Positions 4,025 to 23,092 of a stretch of DNA of 32,000 bases are shown here, in pieces. Each line of letters begins with the position of its first letter. Position 1 is the stretch's first letter. Source of the DNA: Patescibacteria group bacterium. GTDB lineage: Bacteria; Patescibacteriota; Gracilibacteria; BD1-5; UBA2023. The notes beneath the pieces are model-generated. The model did no database searches and was not told the origin of the DNA. It saw nothing but the letters and a program-made list of their open reading frames with translations. Position numbers and translations under genes: made by a program. Location: positions 20,652 through 52,651 of the forward strand of contig JBMOJK010000003.1 in assembly GCA_049315825.1 (NCBI GenBank), read 5' to 3'.

Positions 4025-4025
4025 A

Positions 4026-4064
4026 ATAATCCTCCAAAGCCTAAGGCGAAGGAGGATTATTTTT
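4026..4064. terminator. bidirectional hairpin terminator between convergent genes
   Basis: ATAATCCTCC (4026-4035) pairs with GGAGGATTAT (4051-4060) and is followed by TTTT. It overlaps the 3' end of the minus-strand gene. Confidence 0.5.
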
Positions 4065-4964
4065 GGTAGTCCGTGGTGGTTTGGAAGATAGATCAATTGC
4101 ATGTTGTATAGCTTCTCGCACTAATACATCATCACTGTATGTACCCCGATATCCCAGCATCCAGTTTGTAACATTCTCGCTCACAATCGCAGTAAAGCTT
4201 CCGGAGTTATCATCTGCAGCAAACTTGGTTCTCTGAAATTCACGTGGAGATTCGGTTATGCCATTTTCCTTCATCCATTGATCAAGTGTCTGCGCAATGA
4301 GTACCTGATTTTCAGGATTACCGAAATGCACAACAATAGAATCATTCACAGCAATAAAACTCGATAAATTGGTTGGTATTTTTACTCTAATCGAATCATT
4401 GGTATTGCGTGCTACTATACGGAGTCGCTTTATAAGCAAGGGTATACGATGAATAAACCAATACTGATTGACTGGAAGAGTGGTGTACATTTTATAGTTT
4501 GACTCGACCGTTTTAATCAGCTCAGGATGTACATCAATACCAAACCAGACAGGGTTGCTCACCCATTTGAACTGAGGCTCCATGCGCAATAGAAATTGCT
4601 CAATATTTTCTCTTCTTTTCGCATACCAATTCTGTTGTAACTTGAGGTCTGCCATAATGTCAGCAATAGACTTCTTCGAGAGTATTACCTCTCCACGATG
4701 CGAAAGCATCTCATAAAGAGAATTCACAATTGCATTGGAGAGTTCAAATCATGTCTTTTTAGAAAGATGCCCATGAATGATTTGTGCGTAGTGATCTTTT
4801 TTGCGATCCTCCAAATCAGTAGATGAAGCACTCAAAACTGCTCATGCTCGATTCTTTGCAATATTTAAAACCTCAGACTGTTTTGAGGTATTGTTTGGAG
4901 TTCAGGGATTTTTTGGAGAGTTAAGATCACTCATAATAGAAGATATTTTCATAGTATCATACAT
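4041..4964 (-). CDS. hypothetical protein (~307 aa)
   Basis: Track ORF 4041-4727 extends 5' in frame through TGAs (plus-strand TCA at 4749, 4842, 4902) up to a TAA at 5016-5018. ATG candidates are at 4964 (AGGAAA 7 nt upstream), 4952 and 4934. No family recognised. Confidence 0.55.
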
Positions 4965-5192
4965 AGATTGTTTCCTGCAAATATCCACAAAACACACCTC
5001 CCTAGGGTGTATTTTTTAACCGGCCTATTTTTGACTCAGCTTATTTGAGTGAATATACAAAGTTGCAAGCTAGTTCATGTGTTATGGATAAAAACCCAGA
5101 TAGTCAAAGATGGATATTTAAAAAACTCACGTACGCATATTTTCAAATAAGCAGAAACGCATATGATATTCACTTACTACCTATAGACTCAC

Positions 5193-5744
5193 ATGAATAA
5201 GTTAATCATCACAGCGCATCCGAGCTCACAGGGATTTACTCATAAAATTGCCCAGAAGATATCGGAACTATCAATACGAAGGGGTGATGCTGTTGAAATC
5301 CTCGATCTCTATAAGACTGATCTCAAGCAGGATTTTCTCGCATTTGAGGATATGAAGGACTTCGGAAAAGACGCAACTACCCAAGCACTTCAGGCAAAGA
5401 TTACTTGGGCAGATGAACTCGTATTTATATTCCCGATCTGGTGGGGAGACACCCCAGCAATCATGAAGAATTTCATCGACTGTAACTTCGGAGCAGGATT
5501 TGCATTCAAGTATGTAAACGGGAAATCCGTTGGACTGCTTACCGGGAAATCCGCACGTATCATCGCAACTTCTGGTGCGCCAGGATTCTTCTACAAAATC
5601 CTCCTTCATGTCCAAGTTATGTGGAATCTTAACCGTATCAAGTTCTGTGGAATTACACAAAAATCTTTCACAGTATTTGGCAGCATGGACAGCTCCAAAG
5701 CCAATAAAGATGCCTATCTCAAGAGTCTCAATCATCTTATTTAA
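5193..5744 (+). CDS. flavodoxin-like fold NAD(P)H (quinone) oxidoreductase family protein
   Basis: 183-aa intact ORF. The N-terminal KLIITAHPSS, the FIFPIWWG segment and overall length are typical of the Flavodoxin_2/NQO-azoreductase fold. Confidence 0.6.
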   Translation: MNKLIITAHPSSQGFTHKIAQKISELSIRRGDAVEILDLYKTDLKQDFLAFEDMKDFGKDATTQALQAKITWADELVFIFPIWWGDTPAIMKNFIDCNFGAGFAFKYVNGKSVGLLTGKSARIIATSGAPGFFYKILLHVQVMWNLNRIKFCGITQKSFTVFGSMDSSKANKDAYLKSLNHLI

Positions 5745-6262: not shown

Positions 6263-7274
6263 TCTTCTTAAAACTTCGAATACATTGCAAGAAGGCATAC
6301 ATCCATCCCTGGATCACATAAATCCGCTTCTTTGGAAATTCAAATTCACTTCCTCCGAATTTCCGCTTGAAATCTGACACTCATTCGAGTCGATGGTTCA
6401 TTACACCGGCAGGTGCAATCCCGAGAAAGTCATACACACTACACCCTGCAGCCTTGCTCGCACGCATCATCTCCCACTGCAGGAGATACGCGGGCATGAA
6501 TTTGCGCTTCGCGTTGTCCGAAGTCGATGCACCATAGTAATAGAGCGCAGTTGCATCCTGGATCACGAGTATCGCAGCTGCGATCACTTCGCCGTCTTTT
6601 TTGGCGAGATAGAGTCACTCATGAGTGCCCGTACGAGCAGCAAGGAGTGCTTCATAGTAAGTACGAGAATTCCCAGCAAAGCCGTCGCGCTCGAGTGTCT
6701 CATGTAAAAGTCGCATAAATGCATCAAGGTCTGTAGTGTCACCCTCTGATCGAACGACAGTTACTTCATGCTTTTGTGCGAGTTTGATATTATATCGCCC
6801 CTTTTGGTGCATCTGTGCGAGGATTGCATCTTCGTCCTGCGTGAGATCTATGAGGAGTGTATGTGATTCGATGAATCCTTTGTAGTATCCGCACTTCCCT
6901 TGTTTTAGAGCGAGTTCATATATCGGTTCGATCTGCAAGAAGACTCCACCCTCCTTTCGCACGAGATCCTGCATCGCAGTCTCGAATGCTCCTAGGTCAC
7001 AGTCCGAAGTGATACTGGGTCCTCCAATACAGAAGAATCCATATTTCCCGAGTCCGATCGAACGTTTCTCAATAAGAGCATATCCAAGAAGTTTACTATC
7101 TCGTACATCACCCAAAAAATACGCCTGATCAAGCGCTCCGCCTCGCAGTAACATCTCGATCCAGTCGATCTGCTGCCAAACAGGTACATATTCATGAGAT
7201 CACTGCCAGAAATCTGAAATCATCTTTCGGATTTCTGTAAAATCTTCACCAAGACCAAAAGTTCGTATTTGCAT
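6249..7274 (-). CDS. FemAB-family peptidoglycan interpeptide-bridge aminoacyltransferase
   Basis: Track ORFs 6381-6587 and 6615-7154 share a frame. They join through TGAs at 6381, 6615 and 7200 and extend to TAA 6249-6251. The C-terminus ...HRLE[G]VSDFKRKFGG matches the FemAB GxxxFKxxFGG motif. The start at 7274 is the longest option; ATG 7223 is an alternative. Confidence 0.7.
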
Positions 7275-7810: not shown

Positions 7811-9511
7811 ATGTCAGAAAAAAATACTCACGATATCGTATCAAATAGCCACGAGATTGCCTCCGGAAATAAGGAGGCACATCCCGTCTTTGCAGAAAAA
7901 CCTCAAACACGCGAACAGATCAACATGGAAACAGCAAACGATCGTATTCGCCTACTCCAGTCTGAAGAAAAAAAGACAAAAGACCTCGAGCGCAAAGGAG
8001 AGATTCGCACACAAATTAACGCGATTCGTCGTGAAAACAATCGCAATGCTCAGAAAGATGCCTACATCAATCCTACACTTACACAGGATGCCTCCTTTGC
8101 AAAACAAGCAAAAGAGCTTCTTGGTGATGGTTCAGTAGACAGCATTTCTGCAAAAAATCTCCTCAAATTAGAGCGCACAAAACGTGGATCTCTTTCAAAG
8201 TTTTTTGCATTCAAAAAAACAACAGATGAAAAGGGGAATGATCTTGAGGAGCCACTTGATGTATCCAAGATTAAGGAAGGTGATAATATCATTATTGATT
8301 TTGGTCGGAATTCTAGCGCAGATATCAAGATAGGTGCAGGGGATCTTATTCCAATAAACATCCAAGCAGTCTCTATTACAGACACTAAAGGTCGAGTACG
8401 GGTAGGAATTCGTTCCGTGGTAAACGGCAAGGTTGGTTACTATGATGAAAGTGGATATATGGAGATTCACAACGGATACACACTCCATATTCTTACAGCA
8501 AAAGAAGTGAAATCTGCACTCACTGCACTTGAAGGAAAGGTAACACTGAGCACTGACGAAAAGAAAGAAAATGATGCAATGGATAGTTTTATTGAACAGG
8601 CCGATCGATTCCCTTCTCTTGCCCAGCGACTCACAAGTTCAAATATTGAACAATATAAGTCATATCAAGAGAAAGCAACTGTGCTCGCAAAACAAATAGA
8701 AAGTGAAACTGGTATCCCATGGCAAGTAACCTATGGTCAAGCTACTCTTGAGACTGGCTATGGTCAACATGCACCAGGGAATAATTACTTTGGAATGAAG
8801 GGTTCTGGGCAATCACAAAAGACGAAGGAGGTGATTAATGGTGTGGAAGTAACCGTACAAGCAGGATTCAAGACATACGCCAGCATGGAAGAATCATTTG
8901 CAGACTATGCGCGACTCATATCAACAAGCGCACGCTACAAAAAGGCATTTGAATTTAAAAATGATCCAGAAGCATTCCTTACAGAAATCATTCGAGGTGG
9001 ATACGCAACAGATCTTGCATATGTCGGGAAAGTAAAATCTATCTGGTGAGATTATGAAAACATTTACAATGCTACCCCAGAAAATATAGCACGCGTTCAA
9101 ATTGACCCGTCTATCAAAGTAGATCCAGACACACTCATTGCTCACGCTGAGAAATATCTCGGCATGAAATATCAGCTCGGTGCAGATGGAACAAGTGCAA
9201 TCGACTGTTCGCAGCTTGTGGTAGAATCTCTCAAGCAAGCAGGAGCTGTTGGCTCAGGGTTTGATACCACTGCTGCTGGATTTCACTCCGTTACAAAGCC
9301 AAAAAAAGCACATGAGGTACAGCGCGGTGATTTCGTGTTTCTTAAAAACGGCAGTAATATTACTCATATCGAAATCGCAACAGGTCCAGCTGTAAATGGA
9401 GTTATTCCCATCATTGATGCAAGCGGACGTAGCAACGCAGGAAAAGTTGCCTATCGCGAACAACGAATTGATAGTCATGTACTCGTTGGAACTCCTACGT
9501 TCTACGCATAA
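7811..9511 (+). CDS. bifunctional peptidoglycan hydrolase (N-acetylglucosaminidase domain + NlpC/P60 endopeptidase domain)
   Basis: Track ORFs 7811-9049 and 9164-9511 share a frame and join through TGA 9047-9049. The middle region has a FlgJ/glucosaminidase-like segment (GQATLETGYG...NYFGMKG...SFADYARL...GYATD). The C-terminus is NlpC/P60-like (YLGMKYQLGADG..AIDCSQLV...GDFVFL...ITHIEIATG). The ~280-aa N-terminus is hydrophilic with no signal peptide. Confidence 0.75.
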
Positions 9512-9513
9512 AT

Positions 9514-9559
9514 AAAACCCCCCTTACTTTGCTCCTAAGAGCTACGTGGGGGATTTTTT
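9514..9559. terminator. terminator-like C-run/G-run hairpin with T-tail
   Basis: CCCCCC (9518-9523) ... GGGGG (9548-9552) followed by ATTTTTT. It sits between convergent genes and shares a motif with 23096-23135. Confidence 0.4.
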
Positions 9560-10745
9560 AGAATATTCCAAGCTGTCAGCTTGCAGGAGCCTCAACATTG
9601 TCGAGGTACTGCCAAAGGGTTTTGATATCTTCTTTGAGCTCGAAGCCTATGATCTCGATATCTGCATTCAGGAGAGATTGGATAAACTCTGTCACTGAGA
9701 CTACCGAAACATCGATGAAGTACTTCCCTGTATCAGGGATATCGAGTGCGATACCAGTGAGGACACTCGCATCTTTCTTGGTGGCAAGTGCAACGCGACC
9801 AGCTTCAAGGACGAGCGGGAGGAGTTTTTCGAGTTCTGTACTCGAATCGATCTTAGTATACGTCACACCAAGTGAGTCAAAATTCGCAAGCACCTGCTCA
9901 TCATCAGGTAAGAGTGATCGAAACTCGAATTCCCGGAAGAGTTCACGAACCGCAGGATTCACGATCGAACGATCTCTGAATATATGAGCGTCGAGATCAC
10001 ATTCGATCTCGACCGTTGTATCGATCGAAGCGAGTTTTTTGGAGAGGAAGGCAACCTCCCGGTTCTCTTCGAGGACAAGTCGGGTTTTTTCGGGCATTTT
10101 GTCGAGATTCTCGTAGATGGATTCGAGCGATCCGAACTCACCAATGAGCGATTGCGCCTTCTTCGGACCAAATCCCTTGATCCCTGGGATATTATCCGAA
10201 CTATCCCCAGTGATCGAGAGATAATCTACGACGTGTTCTGGTCCAACACCGAATTTCTCCCATGCCTGCTCGCTTCGCATCACTGAGCGCTTCATCGTGT
10301 CATACACCACGACATTTCCACCGATGAATTGGTAGAGATCCTTGTCTCCAGAAAGGATCGAGATCTCGTTTTGCGGATCGGTTCGGAGTCTGGTAGCGAG
10401 TGTTCCGATGATATCGTCCGCTTCGTATCCGAGTTTCTCAAGAACGGGGATTTCCATCGCTGCAAGTAGTCGCGTGATATGTTTTTCTTGTGACTTGAGA
10501 TCGTCCGGCATACGGTCTCGAGTTCCCTTGTATTCTGGATATATCTTCTCACGAAAGGTCTCCCCCTTCGCGTCCATGATGAATATGAGAGTATCTGGTC
10601 GTTCGCTCGAATGAAGCCCGAGAAGTGCCTTCGCCATTCAAAATACCGCATTCACCGGCTCACCTGCCTTCGTAGTGAATGGTGGTACCGCGTAGAAGAG
10701 ACGATAGATGAGATTGTACCCGTCGATAAGGAAAATCTTGCGCAT
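9558..10745 (-). CDS. Pol I-type 5'-3' exonuclease (FEN) with a short 3'-5' exo-like remnant and no polymerase domain
   Basis: Track ORF 9576-10637 extends 5' through TGA 10638-10640 to ATG 10745 (MRKIFLIDGYNLIYRLFYAVPPFTTKAGEPVNAVF[G]MAKAL, the classic Pol I N-terminus). It extends 3' through TGA 9576-9578 to TAA 9558-9560. GDKDLYQ and DNIPGIKGFGPKKA (H3TH) motifs are present. Confidence 0.85.
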
Positions 10746-10752
10746 AAGATGG

Positions 10753-11181
10753 TTATTTATTCCCTGTTGTTCCAAATCCACCACGGTCTGTGTTATCCAT
10801 GGTTTCTACAAGTTCGAAGTCCGCGCGTTCAATCTTCACGAATACACCCTGACCGATACGCTCTCCTTTTTCGATCGTCACCGGTTCTTTGCGCATATTG
10901 ATATATGGGAATTTGATCGTGTCATTGTCCCCTGCGTAGTCGATATCGATAATCCCGACAGAGTTCGTCTGCATGAGACCATAGTTCTTGAATGTACTCG
11001 AACGTGGCTGGATCTGAAGTACGTATCCAGCAGGAGTTTCGATCACGGTTCCTGTATCTACGAGCTTGAATTCTCCGGGTGCAAATGTCACCGTTTCGTT
11101 CGCTTCAAAGTCAAAGCCACATGCTCCAGCTGTCTTGTATTCTAGCTTCTTACCAGAGAGATTTTTGATTCGTACTTTCAT
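10753..11181 (-). CDS. dut: dUTP diphosphatase
   Basis: 142-aa intact ORF with trimeric dUTPase motifs (AGACGFDF, GIIDIDYAGD, RIGQGVF, RGGFGTTG). Its stop lies 7 nt upstream of the 5' nuclease start. Confidence 0.85.
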   Translation of the reverse strand: MKVRIKNLSGKKLEYKTAGACGFDFEANETVTFAPGEFKLVDTGTVIETPAGYVLQIQPRSSTFKNYGLMQTNSVGIIDIDYAGDNDTIKFPYINMRKEPVTIEKGERIGQGVFVKIERADFELVETMDNTDRGGFGTTGNK

Positions 11182-11310
11182 AGAGGAAAATTATTTCTAC
11201 GAGTATATCTATGGCACTCGAAAGCAGAAAAAAATCCGAAATTACCTATGTTCAATTATTAACAAAAGTGAATTCTCACAGATGATTTTTAAATATAGTT
11301 TGACCTTACC

Positions 11311-11319
11311 GGGGGGGGG
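11311..11319. repeat. G9 homopolymer tract in a divergent intergenic region
   Basis: Nine consecutive G between a TTGACC (11300-11305) and a TATAGT (11327-11332). It is the only long G/C homopolymer I saw in the window. Confidence 0.9.
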
Positions 11320-11387
11320 TAATGATTATAGTGCGGCCACTTTCAGAAGCGCTCTTGAAACGAAATCAAATCACATAAGGAATTCCT

Positions 11388-11744
11388 ATGGAAAACAAAT
11401 CATTTTACCATGCAGGTATTGTGGTCGGATGTATATCACTCATTCTTGGGTGGTTCTATTTAAATACAGAAACACCAGAGACTTTTGCATCCCCACAAGA
11501 AACAAACACACAGTCGAAATCAGTAATAACTATCCCACTAAAGCAATCATCATCTCAGGCAATATGGGGGAAATCTCCTTTTGAAGTCGGTTATGAAGAT
11601 GTAGAAATTGCTGCTGATTCTACGAAGAAATCCCCCGCTAAGCCAAATCTCATCTGGCCAAAGCAGACTTTCACTCTGAAAGACGGGAGAACTCTGACAT
11701 ACGAGTTCGGAAAAGGAAATCCAACTGAGGTTGCAATGCTGTAG
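11388..11744 (+). CDS. small membrane-anchored hypothetical protein (118 aa)
   Basis: Intact ORF. AAGGA lies 8 nt upstream. One N-terminal hydrophobic helix (AGIVVGCISLILGWFYL). Confidence 0.55.
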   Translation: MENKSFYHAGIVVGCISLILGWFYLNTETPETFASPQETNTQSKSVITIPLKQSSSQAIWGKSPFEVGYEDVEIAADSTKKSPAKPNLIWPKQTFTLKDGRTLTYEFGKGNPTEVAML

Positions 11745-11830
11745 GCAACTACAACATAGTCGATATTAACTGATCAACTAGCAACAATCATTACTTCAGT
11801 TTTATTTAGAAATACCGAGTAATGAACACA

Positions 11831-11862
11831 AAAAAACCCACCATCGTACGATGGTGGGTTTT
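11831..11862. terminator. bidirectional rho-independent terminator
   Basis: Perfect palindrome ACCCACCATCG-TA-CGATGGTGGGT flanked by an A-run and a T-run, between convergent genes. Confidence 0.8.
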
Positions 11863-11871
11863 ATCTATAGG

Positions 11872-13074
11872 CTAGTTGTAATTCACGTAAGTATTTACTG
11901 TGAGTGAGTTATTGTTCTCATCGCGCTCTCGAACTGCATTGATCGTGTCTACGACCGCACGAGTTGTGTAGTATCCGCTGTAGTACATATTGAGGAGATT
12001 GAACTGTACGTAAACATCCTGACATGTATCTCCAGCAAGACTCATCGTAACATTTACGCTGCGAGTTGTATTAGCTGCCGTGAGTTCCACATTGGTTGTT
12101 GTTCCTGAGAACATAGACGCTCCACGGTTACAGATGTTCACAACGAATTCGCGAGATGATCCATTCTGCTTAATGTTGTTTACCACGAGATCAGGTCGGC
12201 TTGAGTAGTCGTTGTTGTAGCAGTTGCTATTGTTGTATCCACAGTTGCAGTTGTTGCCAGTGCAGTAGTAGTATCCATTACAGTTGTTACCATTACAGTT
12301 GTTGTAGTAATTTCCGTAACAATTATTGTAGTAATAGTCGTAGTTATAGTTTCCATTTGAGCCATTTACATAGTCAAATGTGTTATACGTGTTTGTTCGA
12401 TAGTATTCATTTCGGGTAGGACATGGAACATAGTTTCCATTTGAGCCATAATACCAGCCGTTGTCTCGATATATATAGATTACATTCCCAGCGTTACTTG
12501 TTTGACCGTAGAATGGCCCTGAAGGACTAAAGTTGATAGGATCAGTATTGGAAGTGCTCGTAGAAGTATAGTTCGTATTGGTTGGCTTGTACCAAGTAGT
12601 AGCCGAATTTGAATTATTCCAAAGATCACGTGAAGGATTTGTAGAAACTACCTCTCCATCGGTCATTGCAACCGAAGGCTTGAGAACATACTGATTGTTG
12701 TCTGTTACCATTTCACGACGATTTCCATCCCATCGGATCGTTGTGGTGATGTTGTAGTTGCGCTCGTATGGTTTCCCAAAAGTTCCAGCTGAAGAAATCT
12801 CAAATGTCTGACATCGACCTGCCTGTATAGAAACACCGGAGATTGTGCGCTCGATAGATTTTGCTGATGTACCGCGGGCATTGAGCACGATACTTCCGAT
12901 CCCATTGGAAGTATCTCCACGATTACAAACTACCATTGTGAAAGTTCGTGCGCTTTTCTGAACAAATGAAGTGAGTTCAAGATCAGGTACTCCGTCATAG
13001 AGTGCATTAAATCCTGCGGATGCACTAGAAACGGTTGCACCGAGCGCGAGGAGAGCGAGCATGATACGTCGCAT
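11872..13074 (-). CDS. secreted protein with two CARDB-like domains and an Asn/Tyr/Cys-rich linker
   Basis: Start reassigned to ATG 13074 (MRRIMLALLALGATVSSASA signal peptide). Both halves show the CARDB-type pattern PDL..., CNRG..., ...D..N.V.E.DENNN. There is no in-frame TGA. Confidence 0.6.
   Translation of the reverse strand: MRRIMLALLALGATVSSASAGFNALYDGVPDLELTSFVQKSARTFTMVVCNRGDTSNGIGSIVLNARGTSAKSIERTISGVSIQAGRCQTFEISSAGTFGKPYERNYNITTTIRWDGNRREMVTDNNQYVLKPSVAMTDGEVVSTNPSRDLWNNSNSATTWYKPTNTNYTSTSTSNTDPINFSPSGPFYGQTSNAGNVIYIYRDNGWYYGSNGNYVPCPTRNEYYRTNTYNTFDYVNGSNGNYNYDYYYNNCYGNYYNNCNGNNCNGYYYCTGNNCNCGYNNSNCYNNDYSSRPDLVVNNIKQNGSSREFVVNICNRGASMFSGTTTNVELTAANTTRSVNVTMSLAGDTCQDVYVQFNLLNMYYSGYYTTRAVVDTINAVRERDENNNSLTVNTYVNYN
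12199..12366 (-). repeat. low-complexity coding repeat (N/Y/C/G-rich)
   Basis: Encodes GSNGNYNYDYYYNNCYGNYYNNCNGNNCNGYYYCTGNNCNCGYNNSNCYNNDYS. The DNA is built from GTTGTT/GTAGTA/GCAGTT-type units. Confidence 0.8.
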
Positions 13075-13274: not shown

Positions 13275-16200
13275 ATGATACTCACTCCATCCTCCTATGG
13301 AGAGCAACCTGACGGTTCGATTGTTGATAGATTTGGGAATGTTATGTCACTCGAAGAGCGACTGAAGATTATCGAGACGGTAGAAGGTCTTCCGGCAACT
13401 AGCAAGAAGGATGATATTATGAATATCGTCAACAACAACCCAATCACCATCGTTATCGGCGAAACAGGAAGCGGGAAAACCACCCAAGTTGGTAAGTGGT
13501 TTTTTGATGACAAGAAAAAAACGGTTATCACCCAGCCTCGTGTGCTTGCTGCGATGAGCAACTCTCATCGTGTATCGGATGAAATGCTTGCGATGACATG
13601 AGATCCGTATTACTCCATTGGAGATGGTGTTGGGTATCGTACTGGAAAATGAGTAAGTTCACTTCATGCTTCACCACTTTCATTTCATACAGATGGAGTA
13701 GAGCTCATGCGTCAAGTGATCTCAAAGATTGTCCCGGATCTACTCATACTCGATGAAGTGCATAATTTCGCACTTCCTACCGAGATATTAGCCATGACTC
13801 AACGCCTCGCAATGCTTCTCAAGCAAAAACGAGAAAGCAAGATTGTAATCATGTCAGCGACGCTTGATCCAGTGATTTTCCAAGAATACTTCAAAGACGT
13901 ATCCACCGATATCCCTGTTGTACAAATCCCGGGGCGCACATTCCCCGTTGAGAAGTATTTTAACAAACGTGACGGGTACATCAGCTCAATCGTTACTCAA
14001 AATACCCAAGGGAACAATGTCCTTGTCTTCGAACCAGGAAAAAAAGAAATCGAACAAGATCATACCACGCTCACCAAACATTTTGCTGCAGATCAGAAAT
14101 ACACTGAAATGTCACACACGATGGGATGGAAGGAACCAATCATCCACGAACTACATGCTGACCTTCCAAAAGAAGATCAAAAAGGCATTACACAAGCCAA
14201 GCAAGATCAGCCCGATGTAACTCTTGCAACCAATGTAGCGGAGGAAAGTATCACAATCGAGCGAATCAACACAGTAGTCGATCTTGGTGAGCATAAAGTG
14301 GTCGACTACAGTAATATGGGCATCCCTGCACTTCGAACACGAAATGCATCGAAAGCAAACTGCCTCCAGCGAGCAGGTCGTGCAGGACGTGTGCGCCCGG
14401 GGACATATATTCGAGTCAATGACACTCCATACGAAGATCTTCCGGACTATCCAGAGGCACCGATGGAAAAGGAAATGCTCGACAAATACATCCTCATCAT
14501 GCTCGAACATGGCGTTGATATCCTCAAGATGGATGATGAAGCTCGTATCGAAGGGAAACAGCTCTTTTTTCATGAATTCGATCGAAAGCTCGTAAACATC
14601 TCGCTCTATCGACTGCACAGCATCGGAGCGATTGATCGAGAACGTAAAATCACAGCGCTCGGTCGTGATCTCATCAAACTTCCACTTGATGTCTACAATG
14701 CACGTGTGCTTTACGAAGGAATCAAGCTCGAATGTGCTGAAGATATGATGTATGCTGCAGCTATTCTTGAGAAAAAAGGATTCGTCTCGAAGAACGGAGC
14801 CTGGAAAGAACTCAAACTCGCTGATCAAGATGAGTCTGACGTACTTGCATTCGTAGATCTTTTTAAGATTATCTCCGCAAGAACCCTCAACAAAGATCAG
14901 ATTCACAAACTCAAGCAGCTCGGTGTGTCTACAGAGGATATTGCTCTATTTCAGGCGCACGATGGAAAATATCGTCTGTTTGAAGTGGTGGATCTCACGG
15001 ATTTTGGCATCAAGACGAAACGAGTAAAAGAGATCAGTGACCTCGTAGAAGATCTCGCTCGCAGACTGACGGATTCCAAGATCGAACTCAAGCCATCAGG
15101 CAATCTCTTTAATAAGAAAGTTGCCCTTGTTACCGGAAGTCTTCATGACGTATATCGCTACGATGGGGATTCTAAAACACTCATAAATACTACTCATAAG
15201 ACTTCGAAGAATCGTCTCGAATTCATCGCTGGTGATATCAGTCTGATCGAAGTTACTCCCAAGAGTATGTATGTAGGACAGCCATTTATCATCGGCGGAA
15301 AGAAGAACCCAGAGACCGGACTCATGTCACCCGACCTTAATCTTGTGACATTCTTAACCGCAGTAGACAGTGGACATATCAAAAGTGCGGTCGAGAGCAC
15401 ACAAAAGCATCTTGCAAAGTTGGCAACGAGCACATGAATCACAAACATCGCACATACCACACCTTCTTCCCAGCCACATTCAATTGTCCAGACTGAAGTA
15501 GCAAAAGGCACGCCAATACGAGAACATGCCCCGGGTACGAGTGATCAGGTAGACCAATTATGAGCACCAGAATCGGGAAATATACCAAGCATTAAAGAAC
15601 TTGAACGCGAAGCTCCAAGTCTCTTCGCGGAAATCTGAAAAGATGTAACTCGGGATACACTTTCTATTGAGAAGGCCATTGCTCACTACGCTGCTGCAAT
15701 GGAAAATGTGAAACTTGAAGAATCACACGTATTTGAGACGCAGGATACTGTGACAAACTACTATCTCAAACACTGCCTCCCTGATTTTCTCATCGGTCAT
15801 AACGAATCAATCCGAAAATTCTTGAGCACAAAAGATCCTGAGTATATCTTCAATTTTCGTGAGCTCCTTGCTCGATTCCTGCTTGATTCCGAGTCATACC
15901 GTATCTCAAAGCAGAGCATCGAGAAAACCGAGAAGAGCTTTCGTCATGATACGAGTATCATGAGTCGGTTCCTCGAGTCTGACAATCCGTTCATCAAGCA
16001 GTTCATCCGAACAGGAAAGGTGCACCTCCCAGCACAGCATACACAAGAACTTCTTCTTCCGCTCACGAGTCATGTTGAGAGTGCAAGTGGGAATGCAACT
16101 CTTACGCTTCAGAAAATCGAATATGCAAAACTTCTCGGTCAGCTGGGACGCGAAAAACGAAACATCGATCTGCAGGACTACAAATCACGCATAACTCGAA

Positions 16201-17048
16201 ACTACATCAGAGGTCTTTCAGATACCTCAGAAGCCTACTGCAACATTGCAGCAATCCATCGTCAGCTCTCTTTTAAAGAAAATAGCGATCTTCAAGTAAT
16301 CACGAAGTCGCTGAAATGAATCGATCGTAAGAAAGGTGCACTTCGAAAATGCCAAAAGCTTCGAGGGTATAAGCTCAATATCCTCGATCATCTTCGTCAG
16401 CTACAAAATTGAGAAAAATGTGACATCGAACTTCTCGAATGACATGCGTTTTCGAAAGAAACTTCTACACGGTTTGTTACAAAATATCTCCCAACGCTCC
16501 GCTATATGCAGTCGGATGACGTGCGTCAGATTACCCGCGGAAAGCGTGCACTTGAAGACTATATCATTCACTTCAAAAGTGAGATAGAAGCACTCGACAC
16601 TATGATCAACGCACTCGTCGATGAAACGGATATTCAACATATTCCAGCAGCTCGGGACATGAAGCGAGCCATCGAGAAGCTCTGCACTGAATTCTTTGAT
16701 ACGGAATACTATCGTCTCATGGTAGCACCTGAGATATTTGGACTTGTTCGAGAATTATTCCGAGACAAACTCGATCGCAATCGAGGCTGCGATGAAATTC
16801 TTGCTCAATTTCTCGAATCAAAAAGCTTTTCGCACAGCAAAGAATACAAGAGCATCTTCCGTGATCTCGAAGCATATACTGACACTCTCTACGTACTTGA
16901 ATCTTACTCAGGCACCATTGCTCAAGAGGTTCGAGAATCTCACGATGAATCCCTCATCAAATCTCGCATCAACGAGCTCAAGGCACATATCACACTCCTC
17001 AAAGCACAAAAGCAAACGATTAGTGAGAATCCCCTACTCCAAGTATAG
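13275..17048 (+). CDS. DEAH/RHA-family ATP-dependent helicase (HrpA-like) with a long uncharacterised C-terminal extension (1257 aa)
   Basis: Track ORFs 13275-13601, 13707-15437, 15699-16319 and 16506-17048 are all in frame 0 with no TAA/TAG between them. They join through eight TGAs (13599, 13650, 15435, 15561, 15636, 16317, 16410, 16440). Motifs: GETGSGKTTQ, DEVH, SAT, QRAGRAGR and an HA2-like LGAID...LPLD. Stop TAG 17046-17048. Confidence 0.8.
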
Positions 17049-17054
17049 ATTCAC

Positions 17055-17088
17055 ATGAAAAAAGACCGACAAATCGGTCTTTTTTCAT
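17055..17088 (+). terminator. rho-independent terminator
   Basis: Perfect 15-bp stem ATGAAAAAAGACCGA / TCGGTCTTTTTTCAT with a CAAA loop, 7 nt after the helicase stop. Confidence 0.8.
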
Positions 17089-17092
17089 GTAT

Positions 17093-17155: not shown

Positions 17156-17527
17156 ATGGAAGAATCCCTCAAAGAGCAGTATCGCTCAGATATGCTCTCC
17201 GGCATTCAACGTGAAGCGCACAAAGAACTCCAAGATCTCATGCGAATCATCGTACGCAGACATGTACATGAACCAACAGGTTCACAAGATATTTATAAGC
17301 TTTTCTCACAGGTCTTCGACGATGTGTTTCGCGATATTTACGACAAGAAAGTTGATCTTAAGCGCAAAACTCGCCACATGCTCGAAATGCTCTCCATCTC
17401 ACACAATCACAAACCACACGAAGAGCGCATGAAGCTCTATGAAGACATTATTGAAAATAAGACCTACTATCAACGAAAGAAAAAGCCAGAAAACCCTGAA
17501 TTAGAGAAAGAAACTTCGAATTCGTAG
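17156..17527 (+). CDS. hypothetical charged/helical protein (123 aa)
   Basis: Intact ORF ending TAG. No family recognised. Confidence 0.5.
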   Translation: MEESLKEQYRSDMLSGIQREAHKELQDLMRIIVRRHVHEPTGSQDIYKLFSQVFDDVFRDIYDKKVDLKRKTRHMLEMLSISHNHKPHEERMKLYEDIIENKTYYQRKKKPENPELEKETSNS

Positions 17528-17624: not shown

Positions 17625-20051
17625 ATGCAGAGCGCAATGCATATATCTACACCATTCCCACCTCGGCCATTCTCACTTCGCGAGACTGCTCTTGAGCTCT
17701 TCGAAGAAGCCCAGTTCAAAAAACGCGGATCGCGTTTTGAGAAATTCAAATCCGATTGGAAACGAGATTCCAAGAAACGTCTTGTTCTCGGACTTACTCT
17801 CGCAGGCTGAGCTATCATCGCAACAGCTACTGGTGCTACTGCGATTGCAGGAGCGATGCTCGCAACCCGTGCAGCCGTTGGAGCGATTGGTGGTTTTCTG
17901 ACAACAGAGGCTCTGTTTGATATCGGGAAATCAAAACTCTCACAAAGTCAGATCACTCAACTACTCAACACTATCGAACGAGCTAATGACTTCAACGAAG
18001 TCCTCAAAACTATTGCTGAAATCGAACAATCCTATGCTTCGGAACATCTAGAATCTGCTTTTCGAGAAGCTCAACGAAAAAAGGTGCGATTCGAAGCTGT
18101 AAAAAAGATATCTGCCGTAACGGTTGCTGCGGTACTCGGAGTGCTGGGTGGATCACACGCAGCAGAAGCTGCAACTGAGTCGGTTTCTCAAAGTGCAACT
18201 CCTATCGTTCCTGTTCCTACTTCTACCTCTGTTTCAGCGAATTTACCTCCTATTGCACCTCACAATCCACCTCCTTCCATGAAAGATATTTTCGCGGATA
18301 TTCGACACGATCATCCAACACAGCGATATGTCACACTCGAACAAAGCATCAGACGTATCGAAGGACTTAAACAAGGGATTGCTCTCGAAGAAAGTGAGAA
18401 ACTCACCACTCTCAACAACGAGATTTCCCGGCTCGTCCATAATCCGAACGGCCACATCGCAACGATAATCGATGAACTTGGATATCGTTCACCAGGAGAA
18501 ACCATAGATCAGGCTGCTCGCAAACTTCAGGAAAAGGATCTTCAAGAAATCCTTGAAAAATACATCGAACAAACCACTCCTACAGCAACACCCACACCCA
18601 CTGACATTATATCCCCAGTTGCACTTCAAAGCACACCTGCATCAAACTCAACAATCGAACTCGACTCCGCAAGACTCACAACAGAAACACCTCAGGATGA
18701 TCTAGAACAAAAAGGCTGGTACCACCATGCATTTGGAAAGATACTCATCGGATGAACTGCCTTATTGAGTGCCTTTGGTATCGGAAGAATGAGTAAAAAA
18801 GACGATACGACTACAGTAACACCAACACAAGAAACTACGACAAATCCCGTAGTGATTCCCCCGATAGTCGAAGAGCCCTCAGAGTCCACGGTAAACACCG
18901 TAGCTCAGCCTCCAGTGACACAGGCTGCTGAAAATGATGCTGCTCAAAATATCGTCGATGACACCCTGCAAACAACCTCAGTACATAATAATACAACCGA
19001 GCATGAACATGCAGCAAATGAGCCTGAAGAAATCTCTATAGAGCAACACGTGCGTGATCTCATGAATACTGGAAAGCACTATCAATGGCTCCTTGATCGC
19101 GAGAAAACACGGGCCAGTAGTGAAAAAGCACATGTATGCTTTAGAGCACCAACGCTTTGAGGGGAGTTTGAGATGAGATTCGAGATCACACACACATCGT
19201 ATCATTTTGCGGTCATCTGGCACGAAGCAGGCATTGGAAGGCATCATGTAGACTCTGGAAAAATAGAATCCTCAACAATCCCACGCGACCTCACAGAGCG
19301 ATCAGTATTCCTACAAGAACTCATCGAAAAGTACTTCTTCGAGATCCTCGACTATCGCGAAGAACAAAAGACGATGGAAATGCGAAGTCTCCATACGGTC
19401 GAGATCACCAAACAAGATCTCAAAGCCATCTACCAGCAACTCGAGCATCCAGAGACCGTAGCACTTGACCATGAGACGGGTGGTTGGTGGTACATGGATA
19501 GTTATCGACTGCACAACGGGAAAATACGGATGATAAATTTGCACAATCCCCCATATGAGCTCATTGATGCATCACCAGTAATATTCAAGGTGAAGTCAAC
19601 CGAGACTGGAATGAAGTACGACCATGTTAGAGAGGTAGACTATATGAAAGCAAACTACTCACACATAGAGACGAAGTGGATGATCGAAAGAAGAGAAGAG
19701 GACTTAGAAGTAACTCCTCGTGCATGGTTCAAAACTGGTATGGTCAGTGGATTTAACTGGCATAAGCATTGCTCAGAAACCCTTCGTCATCCAAGTGGAG
19801 GAGATATCAATGATCCAGCATGTGCAACTCTTGCATTTAATAAATCGAATGTTCAAGCTCATACTTGGGCCATCCTCACTCCGCTCACAGATCCTCACTT
19901 CAGACCAGAATCTCATCAGGTCATCCTGGGGGAACCATGACAACGACGATACGTACTCAGTTATTGGGCACTCAATCGAAATCCACAAAACATTCACGGT
20001 CGATATACCCACCGAGATCTTCGAAAGATCAACGTAGAGGTGGTCGATTAA
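17625..20051 (+). CDS. large membrane protein (808 aa under code 25) with a C-terminal JAMM/MPN+-like domain
   Basis: Track ORFs 17625-17810, 17856-18755, 18765-19160 and 19173-19940 are all in frame 0. They join through TGAs 17808, 18753, 19158 and 19938 and end at TAA 20049-20051. Gly/Ala-rich TM segments surround the first two TGAs. The C-terminal part has ETGGWW (19473-) and HKHCSETLRHPSGGD (19761-19805). An SD-like GAGGGGAG plus ATG 19173 directly follows TGA 19158, so a separate 255-292-aa product cannot be excluded. Confidence 0.55.
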
Positions 20052-20054
20052 TCC

Positions 20055-20122
20055 CCGGCACTTTATGTGCCGGAGGGAGGGTGCTGCGCTATCACTCTCC
20101 CTCCGGTGCAGAAATGCACCGG
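20055..20122 (+). promoter_or_regulatory. three overlapping GC-rich hairpins (structured RNA, complex terminator or leader)
   Basis: H1: CCGGCAC (20055-61) / GTGCCGG (20067-73). H2: CCGGAGGGAG (20070-79) / CTCCCTCCGG (20097-106). H3: CCGGTGCA (20103-10) / TGCACCGG (20115-22). H2 shares its CCGG ends with H1 and H3, so the structures are mutually exclusive. No T-tail follows. Confidence 0.5.
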
Positions 20123-20156
20123 AAGTTCATTAACACTCTCGAAGAAAGGATTTTCC

Positions 20157-20663
20157 ATGCACTCTTTTTGGACTTTGTTTAAAGCAGATTTTCTGGCGGA
20201 GACACTGTCCATGGTGCTCTTTTCTGGAAAACATCCGAGATTTATTGCATTCATATTTCTCTTGTTTGTAGGGATCTATTATGTGATTCGTACATGCCTG
20301 AGGATTTGCATCTTTGTTATCTGTTTACCATTTCGTACGAAACATGCTCGGATCAAACACTCGCTCAATACAACTACTCGCGTAGCTCGTAAATTCGGGG
20401 ATGTTTGTTCTCGTATTAGCTCACACGAGAAGTATCTTCAGATTCAAATAACGGGAGAAAATTGGTCCAATCAGATCAATCACATCCTCTATCGAGTCAA
20501 CAAAGATACTGGTTTGCTTCAGATTTTCATATATCGAAATCATGATTCACTTCAGCTGGATTATGCATTTTTGTTGCATCATGCCGGCCTTCCGTACGGT
20601 TGTGAACTCACTCATGAGTCACTCCCCTTGATCCACCAAAAAATTCGCACCAATCTACTCTAG
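20157..20663 (+). CDS. hypothetical membrane protein (168 aa)
   Basis: ATG 20157 lies inside track ORF 20067-20663, with GAAAGGA 6 nt upstream. Hydrophobic segments include FIAFIFLLFVGIYYVI and ICIFVICL. Stop TAG. Confidence 0.5.
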   Translation: MHSFWTLFKADFLAETLSMVLFSGKHPRFIAFIFLLFVGIYYVIRTCLRICIFVICLPFRTKHARIKHSLNTTTRVARKFGDVCSRISSHEKYLQIQITGENWSNQINHILYRVNKDTGLLQIFIYRNHDSLQLDYAFLLHHAGLPYGCELTHESLPLIHQKIRTNLL

Positions 20664-20671
20664 GGGTTATT

Positions 20672-20917
20672 ATGAAAGCGTTTATTTCTCTTGTTCTCGT
20701 TGGTGGACTTGTTGGCTGCAGTTCTACTCCAGCATACAATCCACCTATTCAAAAACCTATTACTACCATCGAATCTGTACCAGCCCCCAGCAGACCAACA
20801 CCCCCCAATAAATTCGATCTCGAAAAACGCAAAAAACGTCTCGAGCTCATCCGCAAAGCAACGGAGAGATCATGAAAAAGTATATTATTTGGATTTTATG
20901 CTTCATGCCTCTGTTAA
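20672..20917 (+). CDS. small lipoprotein
   Basis: Signal peptide with lipobox LVGC (MKAFISLVLVGGLVGCSS). Track ORF ends at TGA 20873-20875, which forms an ATGA overlap with the next gene. Under code 25 it reads on 14 codons to TAA 20915-20917. Confidence 0.55.
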
Positions 20918-21432
20918 GTTTTGCAGAGGTAGCTGGAGATGTAAAAGCCTTGAAACTACAACTTCAATCAATAAATCAAGAGCGGAAACTCGCTCGCGAT
21001 AAGGCGAATAGAATCTTTGCAGAATATGAGAAGGGCGAAGTGGATGAAGATGAGATCGATCACGAATATCAGGCTATTGAGAGTCAAATTACCGCTCTCA
21101 ATGGCCAGAAACAAGATATCGAAAATCGTATTAGAAATCTTGAGGTCACAGAAGCACAAAAGCCCCTGACACATCCAGTTCCAAAGCCCAAAGAAGTTAC
21201 CAAAGAATCTACCCCGCCACCTTCTGGCGGACTCGCTTCTTATGGCGGTAATTTTGTTGCTGATGGCTTACTTTTAGTAGGTCGTATAGTTATCTTCACC
21301 ATTGCTTTTGTAGTGATACTTTTTTGTATCGGACTCGCTATTGAGATTCGAGACAAAAACAAAGTATCTTCTATAGAAAAAATTGAATTATCTGGCAAAC
21401 ACAGTGGTCGAGTCCCCGATCATCTACTCTAG
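20872..21432 (+). CDS. secreted/membrane coiled-coil protein with C-terminal TM anchor (186 aa)
   Basis: N-terminal signal peptide (IIWILCFMPLLSFA), heptad-like charged region, Pro-rich linker and C-terminal TM (IVIFTIAFVVILFCIGLAI). GGAGAG lies upstream of the ATG. Confidence 0.6.
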   Translation: MKKYIIWILCFMPLLSFAEVAGDVKALKLQLQSINQERKLARDKANRIFAEYEKGEVDEDEIDHEYQAIESQITALNGQKQDIENRIRNLEVTEAQKPLTHPVPKPKEVTKESTPPPSGGLASYGGNFVADGLLLVGRIVIFTIAFVVILFCIGLAIEIRDKNKVSSIEKIELSGKHSGRVPDHLL

Positions 21433-21443
21433 AAAGGACTATC

Positions 21444-21905
21444 ATGCCTCGTGATACAAACGCCCTACCGAATTGGGTGAAAAAAAATCCGGAAAAGTAC
21501 AGCAAGCGACTTCAGTACGAAGCAGCTATGCTCTACAAACAATTCCCGTTTCTTGGCTTTTTCATGAAAGGAGATTCACTACGGATAGAAGGACCTGTAA
21601 TGTCGGCAAGTCTCAATGTGTATCAGATTCGTGTAGTTTACGAAGCTGAATATCCAGCGAGACCGCCAAGCGCCTTTATCATTGATAAAGATATATCAGA
21701 GTTTTGTAGTAAAGATGGAAACCGTGGTCACAATTTCCATAACTACGGAATGGAAGCCAATGGTCTCGGACTCTGCCTCATGGCTCAAGATGAATGGAGC
21801 CCTCAACGTTCTGGTATTTCAGTAGTTGAATATGCAATTGCTTGGGTCAATGCATATGAATTTAAGCGTATGCGTGGATACTGGCCATTGCGCGAAACAA
21901 AGTAG
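21444..21905 (+). CDS. ubiquitin-conjugating enzyme (UBC/E2)-like protein
   Basis: AAAGGA SD. VVYEAEYPARPPSAFI resembles the E2 YPfxPPxvxF motif. HNFHNYGMEANGLGLCLMAQDEWSP resembles the E2 HPN...G.ICLdiL...WSP active site, with candidate catalytic Cys111 (TGC 21774-21776). Confidence 0.6.
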   Translation: MPRDTNALPNWVKKNPEKYSKRLQYEAAMLYKQFPFLGFFMKGDSLRIEGPVMSASLNVYQIRVVYEAEYPARPPSAFIIDKDISEFCSKDGNRGHNFHNYGMEANGLGLCLMAQDEWSPQRSGISVVEYAIAWVNAYEFKRMRGYWPLRETK

Positions 21906-21943: not shown

Positions 21944-22186
21944 ATGGGTAGCACAACTAGAACTGAATACAAAATCCCAGGAATGGGTGACGTAGGTACG
22001 CCTGGAAACAGACGTCCAATTAATATTTCAGCACTCGATGCAGCCTTCAAGGATTATCGAGAAGGCGACGGTGTTGTTATGGATCCACGTGGTGTCATTC
22101 ATGGTGGAAATTCTCGCCCTGCTCAAGAACTCATTAATAATAGTGAGTCAGTAGCAATACTCATGGATGAACCTACTACAATGTAG
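21944..22186 (+). CDS. 80-aa protein between E2 and E1 (candidate ubiquitin-like modifier precursor or substrate)
   Basis: AAGGAG SD 8 nt upstream. Double stop TAGTAG. Internal ...GVIHGG (GG = 22103-22108, residues 54-55) is followed by a 25-aa tail. There is no C-terminal GG. Confidence 0.55.
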   Translation: MGSTTRTEYKIPGMGDVGTPGNRRPINISALDAAFKDYREGDGVVMDPRGVIHGGNSRPAQELINNSESVAILMDEPTTM

Positions 22187-22225
22187 TAGTCCACATTCTC
22201 GAATAAAGACAAGGAGAAATACATA

Positions 22226-23092
22226 ATGGATACTGCAGACTGCAAAACAGGAAGTGGTTTTCGTAATCTAAATCATCTCGAAAACCACTTCCACTCCCCC
22301 AATCCACGTCGCGATGCGCTCATTCCTCCTTTGCGGGGAAAGCGGGTCGTGGTGGTGGGGTTGGGTGGTGGTGCACCGATACCGATTGAGCTTTTGAAGT
22401 GTGGTGTGGATGCGTTTGATCTTGTGGATTTCGATATTCTCGAGCCCCACAATGCCATCCGTCATCCATGCCCGGCAAAATACTTCGGTCGCCCAAAGGT
22501 CGAAGCAGTTGCTGAGTTTATGCGAGAACTCGCCGGATCACAGGTGGAGATCAACCCACATGTGATCGATGTATTCAAACATCACGACACCCTGAAAGAT
22601 CTCATCAACAATGCAGACCTCCTCATCGTTGCAACTGACAGCGAAGCTTCGCGGTTTTTTCTCAATGAAATCGCCGTCGAAACCAAAACCCCCGCTGTCT
22701 ACGTTGGAATGTACGAAAACGGTTCTGGCGGAGAAATTTTCGCTGCTATGCCCGGACAGGCATGCTATGCATGCCTGTCTCACTACAACCAGCGTGAAAC
22801 CTTCATGCAACAATACCGAACTGCCACCCGCAAGGGCGACTGCAGTTCAAATCGCGATACCCTGGCTATGCCAGGCTTGGGTATCGATCAGGGCATGCTC
22901 GCCCTCATTGCGGCACGCAAGTCCGTGGAAATCCTTCTTCGTGGAGTGCAACACTCCCTTCCTCCAGCCGGAGGAAACTGGATCGTGTTCTCGATTTTCG
23001 GTATCACCAAAATACTCGAATCTCCGCTTACATGCTTCCAGGGCGACCTCGCGCAACATTCCAAATGCTTTGCGTGCGGCGATCCGTACTAA
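22226..23092 (+). CDS. ThiF/MoeB/E1-like adenylyltransferase
   Basis: AAGGAG SD. Rossmann nucleotide loop VVVVGLGGGAPIP, DLVDFDILEPHNAIRH (the E1/ThiF DxDxxxxSNLxRQ region), and paired CxxC motifs (CYAC, CFAC). 288 aa. G+C is visibly higher than in the neighbours. Confidence 0.8.
   Translation: MDTADCKTGSGFRNLNHLENHFHSPNPRRDALIPPLRGKRVVVVGLGGGAPIPIELLKCGVDAFDLVDFDILEPHNAIRHPCPAKYFGRPKVEAVAEFMRELAGSQVEINPHVIDVFKHHDTLKDLINNADLLIVATDSEASRFFLNEIAVETKTPAVYVGMYENGSGGEIFAAMPGQACYACLSHYNQRETFMQQYRTATRKGDCSSNRDTLAMPGLGIDQGMLALIAARKSVEILLRGVQHSLPPAGGNWIVFSIFGITKILESPLTCFQGDLAQHSKCFACGDPY

Follow-up and report, generated by a model that had tools for sequence, protein, structure and literature searches.

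Bacterial systems that combine E1-like and E2-like enzymes with a JAB peptidase (type II CBASS, Bil and Bub) are recent discoveries and bear on the origin of ubiquitination. To our knowledge, the JAB peptidase of every described system of this kind is either small and soluble or fused to E1, and the systems are encoded in sporadic defence operons. The JAB peptidases of these three systems expose the C-terminal Gly of the modifier, reverse its conjugation, or do both (PMC10097602, PMC11601596). Cap2 and Cap3 conjugate and release a protein without a beta-grasp fold, in CBASS the CD-NTase, via its conserved C-terminal Gly/Ala (PMC10097602), and the JAB domain of BubCD cuts its precursor after a conserved Gly (PMC11601596). 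The present analysis concerns a window of 32,000 nucleotides, meaning the whole stretch of DNA that was analysed, from a Patescibacteria group bacterium of the Gracilibacteria (contig JBMOJK010000003.1, positions 20,652 to 52,651 of the forward strand). Within this window lies the gene for an 808-amino acid (aa) membrane protein with a predicted C-terminal JAMM/MPN+ domain, referred to below as the JAMM protein. The gene is encoded beside E1- and E2-like enzymes in nearly all related loci examined, and this conserved linkage points to an undescribed membrane-bound protein-tagging system. A first-pass annotation, made from the letters of the window alone, had regarded the membrane-tethered JAB architecture as undescribed; the literature searched agreed with this, as neither a JAB tethered to the membrane nor a ubiquitin-like system of Gracilibacteria was described in it.

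Under translation table 11, the gene appeared as three fragments in one frame (17856..18755, 18765..19160 and 19173..19940). All four in-frame stops within 17625..20051 were TGA (17808, 18753, 19158 and 19938). When TGA was read as a sense codon, the longest open reading frame (ORF) of the window grew from 1182 to 2322 aa, and 17625..20051 became a single frame of 808 aa. In an alignment of the window protein with six homologues, the residue found most often opposite TGA was Gly (119 cases), followed by Ser (44 cases), and Trp was not among the eight commonest residues. At three of the four TGA positions of the window gene, Gly or TGA was present in the homologues. Judging from this alignment, in which TGA columns pair mainly with Gly, the genome uses genetic code 25 (TGA = Gly), the code of Gracilibacteria and Absconditabacteria. 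Code 4 (TGA = Trp) was rejected, as the TGA columns align with Gly.

An orthologue (P0002; P-numbers denote proteins) with 52% identity was found by word-indexed protein search in a syntenic position on the 1.27-Mb chromosome OY970170.1, where the gene encodes 860 aa and includes 10 TGA codons. The NCBI annotation of the window gene comprises only a 255-aa fragment, MFZ4461340.1 (P0001), deposited as 'hypothetical protein [Patescibacteria group bacterium]'. It had been suggested at first pass that a separate product might start at ATG 19173. This was not borne out: the ATG opens an ORF that is an artefact of code 11, and conservation runs on upstream in frame across TGA 19158, where TLGGEF aligns with TIGGNF and TIGGEF. 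A stand-alone product from this start was rejected on that ground. Conservation also continues in frame over TGA 19938.

Since the public annotation used code 11, many other genes of the window are likewise deposited in pieces, among them ABC transporters (4 TGA each) and a 1258-aa helicase-like ORF (8 TGA). No tRNA gene was detected in the window by a tRNA scan, hence no suppressor tRNA-Gly(UCA) can be shown from it.

The HKH...SGGD string at 19761..19805 and the element with Glu at 19473..19475 (E617), which had been taken at first pass for the zinc site and catalytic Glu of a JAMM metalloprotease, are both present. The string on its own is not evidence, since 25% of shuffled windows contained one or more matches to the pattern H.H.{7,8}S..D (mean 0.285), and the minus strand of the window itself has a further match without meaning. 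The weight comes instead from conservation, fold and gene linkage.

An exhaustive hidden Markov model (HMM) search of 1.84 billion representative proteins with a two-sequence profile yielded 41 proteins at E ≤ 1e-3, 21 of them at ≤ 1e-10. In the long family members (595–906 aa), the JAMM domain is C-terminal and the N-terminal architecture is that of the window protein. Many members are deposited with Trp in place of Gly, so code 4 must have been used for those records. Among the source names of the family records, 'Candidatus Gracilibacteria bacterium' is the only informative one. Other searches added little. The word-indexed protein search returned nothing beyond the window fragment and the one orthologue, and no additional members when run with the family profile. 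A scan of genome contigs matched OY970170.1 alone, and one of metagenome contigs gave no match.

A family alignment of 29 sequences was analysed, with identities to the reference of 22–50%, mostly 22–33%. Counting at each column the sequences that cover it, Glu was invariant in 26/26, the two His residues in 25/25 each, Ser in 21/21 and Asp in 19/19. The residues of the putative active site are thus conserved among orthologues, as the first-pass interpretation presupposed. Spacing in the family consensus, NWHKHPxxxxxPSxxD, follows the canonical JAMM pattern HxHx7SxxD, and the x8 spacing is limited to the small clade of the window protein (window, L002 and P0004). The description of the motif as a JAMM match with one extra residue therefore holds for the window protein and not for the family, whose consensus is exactly x7.

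Departures from the conserved site were noted in two places. Locus L004 (L001–L012 denote fetched loci carrying relatives of the JAMM gene), on a contig of 56% GC, encodes two JAMM membrane paralogues about 3 kb apart (2854..5511 and 8669..12169). One of them has a degenerate site, with NWYKH versus NWHKH and Asp in place of Glu; the two may correspond to an MPN+/MPN-minus pair like Rpn11/Rpn8. Protein P0031, from another sample, also carries Asp at the Glu position (judged by eye).

The fold was predicted with AlphaFold2 on the P0002 orthologue. Based on the 29 aligned sequences from the exhaustive HMM search, the window fragment among them, the model reached a predicted local distance difference test (pLDDT) score of 90.2 and a predicted template modelling score of 0.86, compared to a pLDDT of 33 with a two-sequence alignment of the orthologue. 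A Foldseek search of the PDB with this model gave 34 matches at E ≤ 1e-3, and all top-ranked matches identifiable by name were JAMM/MPN proteins. They comprised Sst2/AMSH (1e-5, probability 1.00), AMSH-LP, Rpn11, Rpn8, BRCC36, Prp8-Jab1, Npl4, eIF3 and Citrobacter BubCD (9ea4). The MPN fold anticipated by the first-pass annotation was thus recovered by prediction. In the orthologue model, E32 stands just before strand 34–39 (strand 2), H128 and H130 at the end of strand 123–129, and S139 and D142 open helix 140–153 at its N-terminus. As modelled, this placement of Glu, HxH and SxxD on the secondary structure is the canonical JAMM topology.

Remote sequence comparisons were in line with the model. 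The family profile matched PDB entry 9ild_A, named 'Peptidase', at E = 0.0027, aligned at WHTHP...PSxxD. With hhalign, the family Glu fell on Glu28 (IETCG) of the AMSH-LP catalytic-domain sequence, which we take to be its catalytic Glu, in a weak match (E = 0.1), and HKHP...PSxxD aligned with HxHP...SxxD of a small JAMM alignment. Of the four JAMM sequences used with hhalign, that of AMSH-LP alone was verified. The hhalign results are short local alignments of low probability and served as positional support only, not as proof. The Prok-JAB profile matched 7 of the 29 members over the HxH...SxxD region, covering only about 25–35 profile positions, with a best whole-protein E of 0.0049. Taken together, residues ~586–808 very probably constitute a diverged MPN+/JAMM domain with all catalytic residues, which would bind zinc and act as a peptidase. 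The JAMM region had initially been drawn from 19173; the MPN core starts near 19380 instead.

The third line of evidence is gene linkage. In the window, the genes stand in the order 123-aa protein, JAMM protein, 168-aa protein, 186-aa protein, E2, 80-aa E1N peptide and E1. E2 and/or E1 was present near the JAMM gene in nine of the ten other loci fetched (L002 was included and its duplicate L001 left out; L009 was too short to judge), in several gene orders and among different surrounding genes. The positive loci are L002, L003, L005, L006, L007, L008, L010, L011 and L012. The order is E2, E1N-like, JAMM, E1 in L003, L005 and L007; JAMM, 168-like, transmembrane (TM) protein, E2, E1N::E1 in L006; and 168-like (by eye), E2, E1N-like, JAMM, TM-tail protein, E1 in L008. 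L011 reads TM protein, E2, E1N-like, JAMM; L012 reads E2, E1N-like, three other genes, JAMM, E1; and L010 reads JAMM, E1.

Since the partners are shared despite unrelated flanks and orders, there is strong evidence that the JAMM protein, E2 and E1 work together. The earlier suggestion of a JAB peptidase as the third partner of the E1/E2 pair gains from this association, which recurs in many independent gene neighbourhoods, and the JAMM protein is likely to be the peptidase partner of the pair. The JAMM protein, E2, E1, E1N and one or two small membrane proteins form a conserved module in Gracilibacteria-type (code 25) bacteria. The module sits amid housekeeping genes, and its position is kept between two genomes. 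Its wide occurrence in the lineage, among housekeeping genes, argues for a cellular function over sporadic defence.

As a mechanism, it is proposed that a protein adenylated by E1 and carried by E2 would be cleaved by the tethered JAMM domain at C-terminal peptide or isopeptide bonds. Cleavage would expose a reactive C-terminus, reverse conjugation, or both, at the membrane. The best substrate candidate would be a co-encoded protein that spans the membrane once (in the window the 186-aa protein), and specifically its cytoplasmic tail, with the E1N peptide as second candidate. Nine co-encoded membrane proteins were compared. Their tails are hypervariable and could not be aligned, and all end in G-[RKTME]-[VI]-... 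plus 3–9 residues: HSGRVPDHLL, HSGEITNI, DGRVPVDLL, DGRIPLELL, HSGEIPI, DGMVPQDLVGKE, DGRISDDLI, NGTVPKNLV and DGKIHMENIY. The conserved Gly terminus resembles that of a ubiquitin-like precursor with its cleavage site after Gly. Anchoring of the substrate in the membrane would explain why the peptidase is anchored there as well. The tail of the 186-aa protein family is nevertheless proposed as the substrate only tentatively.

A wider interpretation is offered as speculation and is rather doubtful as a whole, namely that Gracilibacteria-type bacteria possess a lineage-wide, membrane-embedded ubiquitin-like conjugation system without a beta-grasp modifier. The tail of the membrane protein (or E1N) would be cut after the conserved Gly, activated by E1 and transferred by E2, and the external domain of the peptidase would couple this conjugation chemistry to events outside the cell. 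Such a system would amount to Cap2/Cap3-type conjugation adapted to transmembrane signalling, and would serve housekeeping or interaction with a host instead of acting against phages.

Overall, an active tethered JAMM peptidase serving an E1/E2 module is considered the probable explanation, and several observations weigh against it. As to the domain, the loop from HxH to Ser is one residue longer in the clade of the window protein (x8), which might perturb the zinc site, and the AlphaFold2 model is that of the 52%-identical orthologue, not of the window protein itself. The Foldseek TM-scores were moderate (0.37–0.56 by query length), owing to large insertions, notably two helices before the HxH strand. 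The curated profiles to which the first-pass annotation had looked for support gave none: Pfam JAB (PF01398) and Prok-JAB (PF14464) had no match on the window protein at E ≤ 1, and the C-terminal 340 residues had no JAB match in Pfam, NCBIfam or PADLOC, Cap3-type models included. Relatives scanned singly with Prok-JAB reached 11.9–15.1 bits versus a gathering cut-off of 25, and a PDB sequence search with the two-sequence profile returned nothing relevant. As to the module, L004 has no E1 or E2 within its 12.9 kb and L010 no E2 within its 12 kb. Family-library scans recognised neither a beta-grasp ubiquitin-like protein (Ubl) nor a CD-NTase in the module, and the case for the substrate depends on a short motif at the C-termini of nine proteins, in which the distance from Gly to the end ranges from 4 to 11 residues.

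Part of these observations would also suit an MPN fold that serves as a non-catalytic, MPN-minus-like scaffold, binding the E1/E2 machinery or the modifier at the membrane without cutting. The one-residue insertion in the zinc loop of the window clade and the missing score with curated JAB profiles would be in keeping with such a role, and the degenerate L004 paralogue indicates that the family can lose catalysis. However, the five motif residues are invariant in all other members, including the window protein and its orthologue, such conservation at 22–33% identity is typical of active enzymes, and the insertion lies in the loop and not at a ligand. A scaffold is therefore judged improbable.

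An active JAMM peptidase might also act on unrelated targets, such as membrane or secreted peptides, with its E1/E2 neighbourhood being incidental. The lack of a recognisable Ubl in the module, the large N-terminal membrane part and probably external part with no known function, and the two gene copies without E1/E2 in L004 would fit this explanation. Against it stands the presence of E2 and/or E1 in nine of ten other loci with varied orders and flanks; moreover, all characterised bacterial E1/E2 systems of this type use a JAB peptidase (PMC11601596). We regard unrelated targets as unlikely. That the motif arose by chance in a separate 255-aa standard-code ORF (19173..19940) without any MPN relationship, as the frequency of the bare pattern in shuffled windows and the fragment annotated by NCBI might suggest, is scarcely credible and was rejected, given that ORF statistics and alignment back TGA = Gly, that conservation crosses TGA 19158 and TGA 19938 in frame, that the motif is invariant in the family and that the predicted fold is confidently MPN.

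The features of the JAMM gene and of its partner genes are listed in Table 1.

Table 1. Coordinates of the JAMM gene, its predicted domains and the partner genes in the window
Feature	Position	Strand	Remark
123-aa conserved small protein, directly upstream of JAMM gene	17156..17527	+	64% identical in L002; also in L005
Full JAMM gene, 808-aa membrane protein with predicted C-terminal JAMM/MPN+ domain	17625..20051	+	TGA read as Gly
Hydrophobic hairpin, Gly/Ala-rich: predicted TM1 (aa 53–76) and TM2 (aa 79–99)	17781..17921	+	Kyte-Doolittle; in all long homologues
Predicted TM3 (aa 161–181)	18105..18167	+	Kyte-Doolittle
Conserved TM3-TM4 domain, aa ~218–335, motif DHPxQxYVTLEQxxRRIEGL	18276..18629	+	Kept in all full-length homologues
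Predicted TM4 (aa 368–388), followed by RMSKKDD and Thr/Pro-rich linker (aa ~390–470)	18726..18788	+	Kyte-Doolittle
Conserved pre-MPN subdomain, aa ~495–585: TLGGEF...IWxExG..., then helix ending REEQKT	19107..19379	+	Alignments
Predicted MPN/JAMM core, aa 586–808	19380..20048	+	AlphaFold2 model of orthologue and Foldseek
HPETVALDHETGGWWYM, stretch containing E617	19446..19496	+	
E617, predicted catalytic Glu, in ETGGWW	19473..19475	+	Invariant in 26/26 sequences
Predicted zinc-ligand motif HxH-x8-S-xx-D, HKHCSETLRHPSGGD; H713-K-H715, S724-G-G-D727	19761..19805	+	
168-aa membrane protein: N-terminal TM, C-terminal globular part, ends ...RTNLL	20157..20663	+	
186-aa protein: signal peptide, coiled coil, one TM (aa 132–159), short cytoplasmic tail ending HSG179RVPDHLL	20872..21432	+	
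E2-like protein, CBASS type, with invariant Cys111 (21774..21776)	21444..21905	+	
80-aa E1N peptide, motif GTPGNRR, ends TAG TAG	21944..22189	+	
E1-like ThiF-family adenylyltransferase, single 288-aa ThiF domain	22226..23092	+	Pfam ThiF 7.6e-26

Four hydrophobic segments were found in the JAMM protein by a hydropathy scan, rather than the two Gly/Ala-rich TM segments initially described. A strongly basic stretch with 11 Lys/Arg in aa 30–52 precedes TM1, and basic flanks also stand before TM3 and after TM4. According to the positive-inside rule, these basic clusters place the N-terminus, the 100–160 loop and the JAMM domain probably in the cytoplasm, and the domain of aa ~218–335 between TM3 and TM4 probably outside. 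For the TM3-TM4 domain, no Pfam family match was obtained, and the word-indexed search gave nothing useful.

Both enzymes of the pair are supported by profile matches. The E2-like protein matched the PADLOC E2 model at 9.1e-11, its orthologues carry PF26395 (E2-CBASS), and Cys111 was invariant in an alignment across seven loci. The E1-like protein matched a Cap2-type E1-E2 model of PADLOC at 2.5e-28. It has GLGGG (22358..22372), a CxxC...CxxC pair and Cys206 (22841..22843) within a KxDC[ST]S segment, all of which are kept across the seven aligned loci. From its sequence, this segment is taken to be the crossover loop, with Cys206 as candidate catalytic Cys. The E1N motif across loci reads G-T/I-P-G-N-R. 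In L002 and L006, E1N forms the N-terminal part of a fusion with E1, and probably related stand-alone E1N-like ORFs of 86–155 aa are present in L003, L005, L007, L008, L011 and L012. Homologues of the 168-aa protein were found by search in L002 and L006, and a 178-aa ORF in L008 is similar by eye only. A strong hairpin resembling a terminator (17053..17090) lies ahead of the 123-aa gene, which therefore probably opens the transcription unit.

With regard to the E1N/E1 junction, E1 is split in the window and restarts 36 nucleotides after TAG TAG with an AAGGAG-like site of its own. The break coincides precisely with the 'TSM|AD' junction, through which the sequence of L002 and of L006 runs uninterrupted. 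It resembles a clean fission of the gene more than a pseudogene. In L003 (9580..10014), L005 (7562..7984) and L007 (7492..7959), a TGA directly follows the conserved C-terminal Phe/Tyr of the E1N-like ORF, and the orthologous site in L008, L011 and L012 is TAA or TAG. Those TGAs could either terminate translation despite code 25 or encode Gly and lead into a hydrophobic read-through tail of 35–45 residues that the JAMM domain could trim.

The interval between the JAMM and 168-aa genes (20052..20156) contains three consecutive GC-rich hairpins with a folding z-score of −4.8. An aligned stretch of ~125 nucleotides over this interval is 89% identical to L002, compared to only 45–55% for the flanking proteins, and includes one compensatory G-C to A-T change. 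No Rfam match and no T-run were found for these hairpins. A GTTCATTAACA box just 5' of the 168-aa start is partly kept in L006 and L008. The hairpin region may be a regulatory RNA or an operator.

Further neighbours were recorded upstream of the module and in other loci. The helicase-like ORF (13275..17048) encodes a 1258-aa protein of DEAH/HA2 type (Helicase_C 3.4e-11, HA2_N), whose long C-terminal extension had no family match. It is followed by the terminator-like hairpin, with a 17-bp stem. L002, although otherwise syntenic, lacks this ORF and has a 551-aa gene on the minus strand in its place. On the minus strand at 11872..13074, a 401-aa secreted protein with a long low-complexity core rich in Asn, Tyr and Cys contains no TGA codons and is kept in L002, with 62% identity where the two align. 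Four loci, L003 (13837..15729), L005 (11577..13763), L010 (10090..12105) and L012 (8466..9683), encode a large protein of DUF4116 repeats 3' of E1, directly after E1 in three of them and about 1.5 kb off in L012. This protein is absent from the window and may be a further member of the module. In L007, a second E2-like ORF (6706..7137, ITIYYPEDYPYS), recognised by eye, lies directly 5' of E2 and may be a UEV-like partner.

This locus differs from the described systems in three ways. A JAB domain is joined to a multi-pass membrane protein with an apparently external domain, further module members are also membrane proteins, and the module is kept across a candidate-phylum lineage with tiny genomes (~1.3 Mb in one complete relative) and a recoded stop. 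The protein and its family are invisible in databases because standard annotation fragments the gene, and motif-level reading of recoded genomes can recover families missed by profile libraries. If the proposed mechanism were true, ubiquitin-like chemistry would extend to membrane-anchored modifiers in bacteria, and the Cap2-type principle of a 'non-Ubl modifier' would gain a concrete set of proteins with which it could be tested beyond immunity.

When compared with type II CBASS, the module shares the JAMM motif of Cap3 and a CBASS-family E2, and the models that match its E1 best in PADLOC are Cap2-type E1-E2 models. In contrast to Cap2, which is an E2-E1 fusion, E1 and E2 are separate genes here. 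Cap3 is small and soluble, whereas the present peptidase is the C-terminal domain of a four-TM protein of 720–910 aa, and no PADLOC model matches the window peptidase. No family match to a CD-NTase or effector was obtained for five module proteins in PADLOC or nine locus proteins in Pfam. Unlike a sporadic defence island, the module is widespread in one lineage. Membership in type II CBASS was rejected, as no CD-NTase or effector was matched and E1 and E2 are unfused.

BilC and the JAB domain of BubCD are likewise JAMM peptidases of bacterial E1/E2 operons, where they free the C-terminus of the modifier by cleaving its precursor behind a conserved Gly (PMC11601596), and Citrobacter BubCD was among the structural matches; the JAB domain described here differs from both in being membrane-tethered. 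In Bil, BilA is a beta-grasp Ubl and BilD an E1 of several domains (IAD-AAD-CYS), whereas no Ubl family match was found in the module and its E1 has a single 288-aa ThiF domain; assignment to Bil was rejected on these grounds. In Bub, the E2 is of the Ser type and the E1 of the Tyr type, and DUF6527/BubE is present. Here, both enzymes keep an invariant Cys and Pfam gave no DUF6527 match, so Bub (6E) was rejected as well.

The family consensus HxHPx5PSxxD is of the Prok-JAB (PF14464) type. Membership in Pfam JAB or Prok-JAB was nevertheless not assigned, as relatives remained below the 25-bit cut-off and the window protein had no match at all. The best structural matches were eukaryotic-type JAMM proteins (AMSH/AMSH-LP/Sst2, Rpn11, CSN5 and BRCC36), which carry the same E...HxH...SxxD on the same secondary-structure elements, and the L004 paralogues recall the pairing of Rpn11 with Rpn8. 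The insertion before the HxH strand sits at what we take to be the Ins-1 position of AMSH-LP. The eukaryotic JAMM deubiquitinases differ in sequence (~10–14% identity), and the present family differs from them in its two-helix insertion of ~37 residues, its membrane anchor and its bacterial host with a recoded stop. By analogy, the domain may thus be likened to Cap3, BilC and BubC in function, and in its modelled structure it resembles AMSH and Rpn11.

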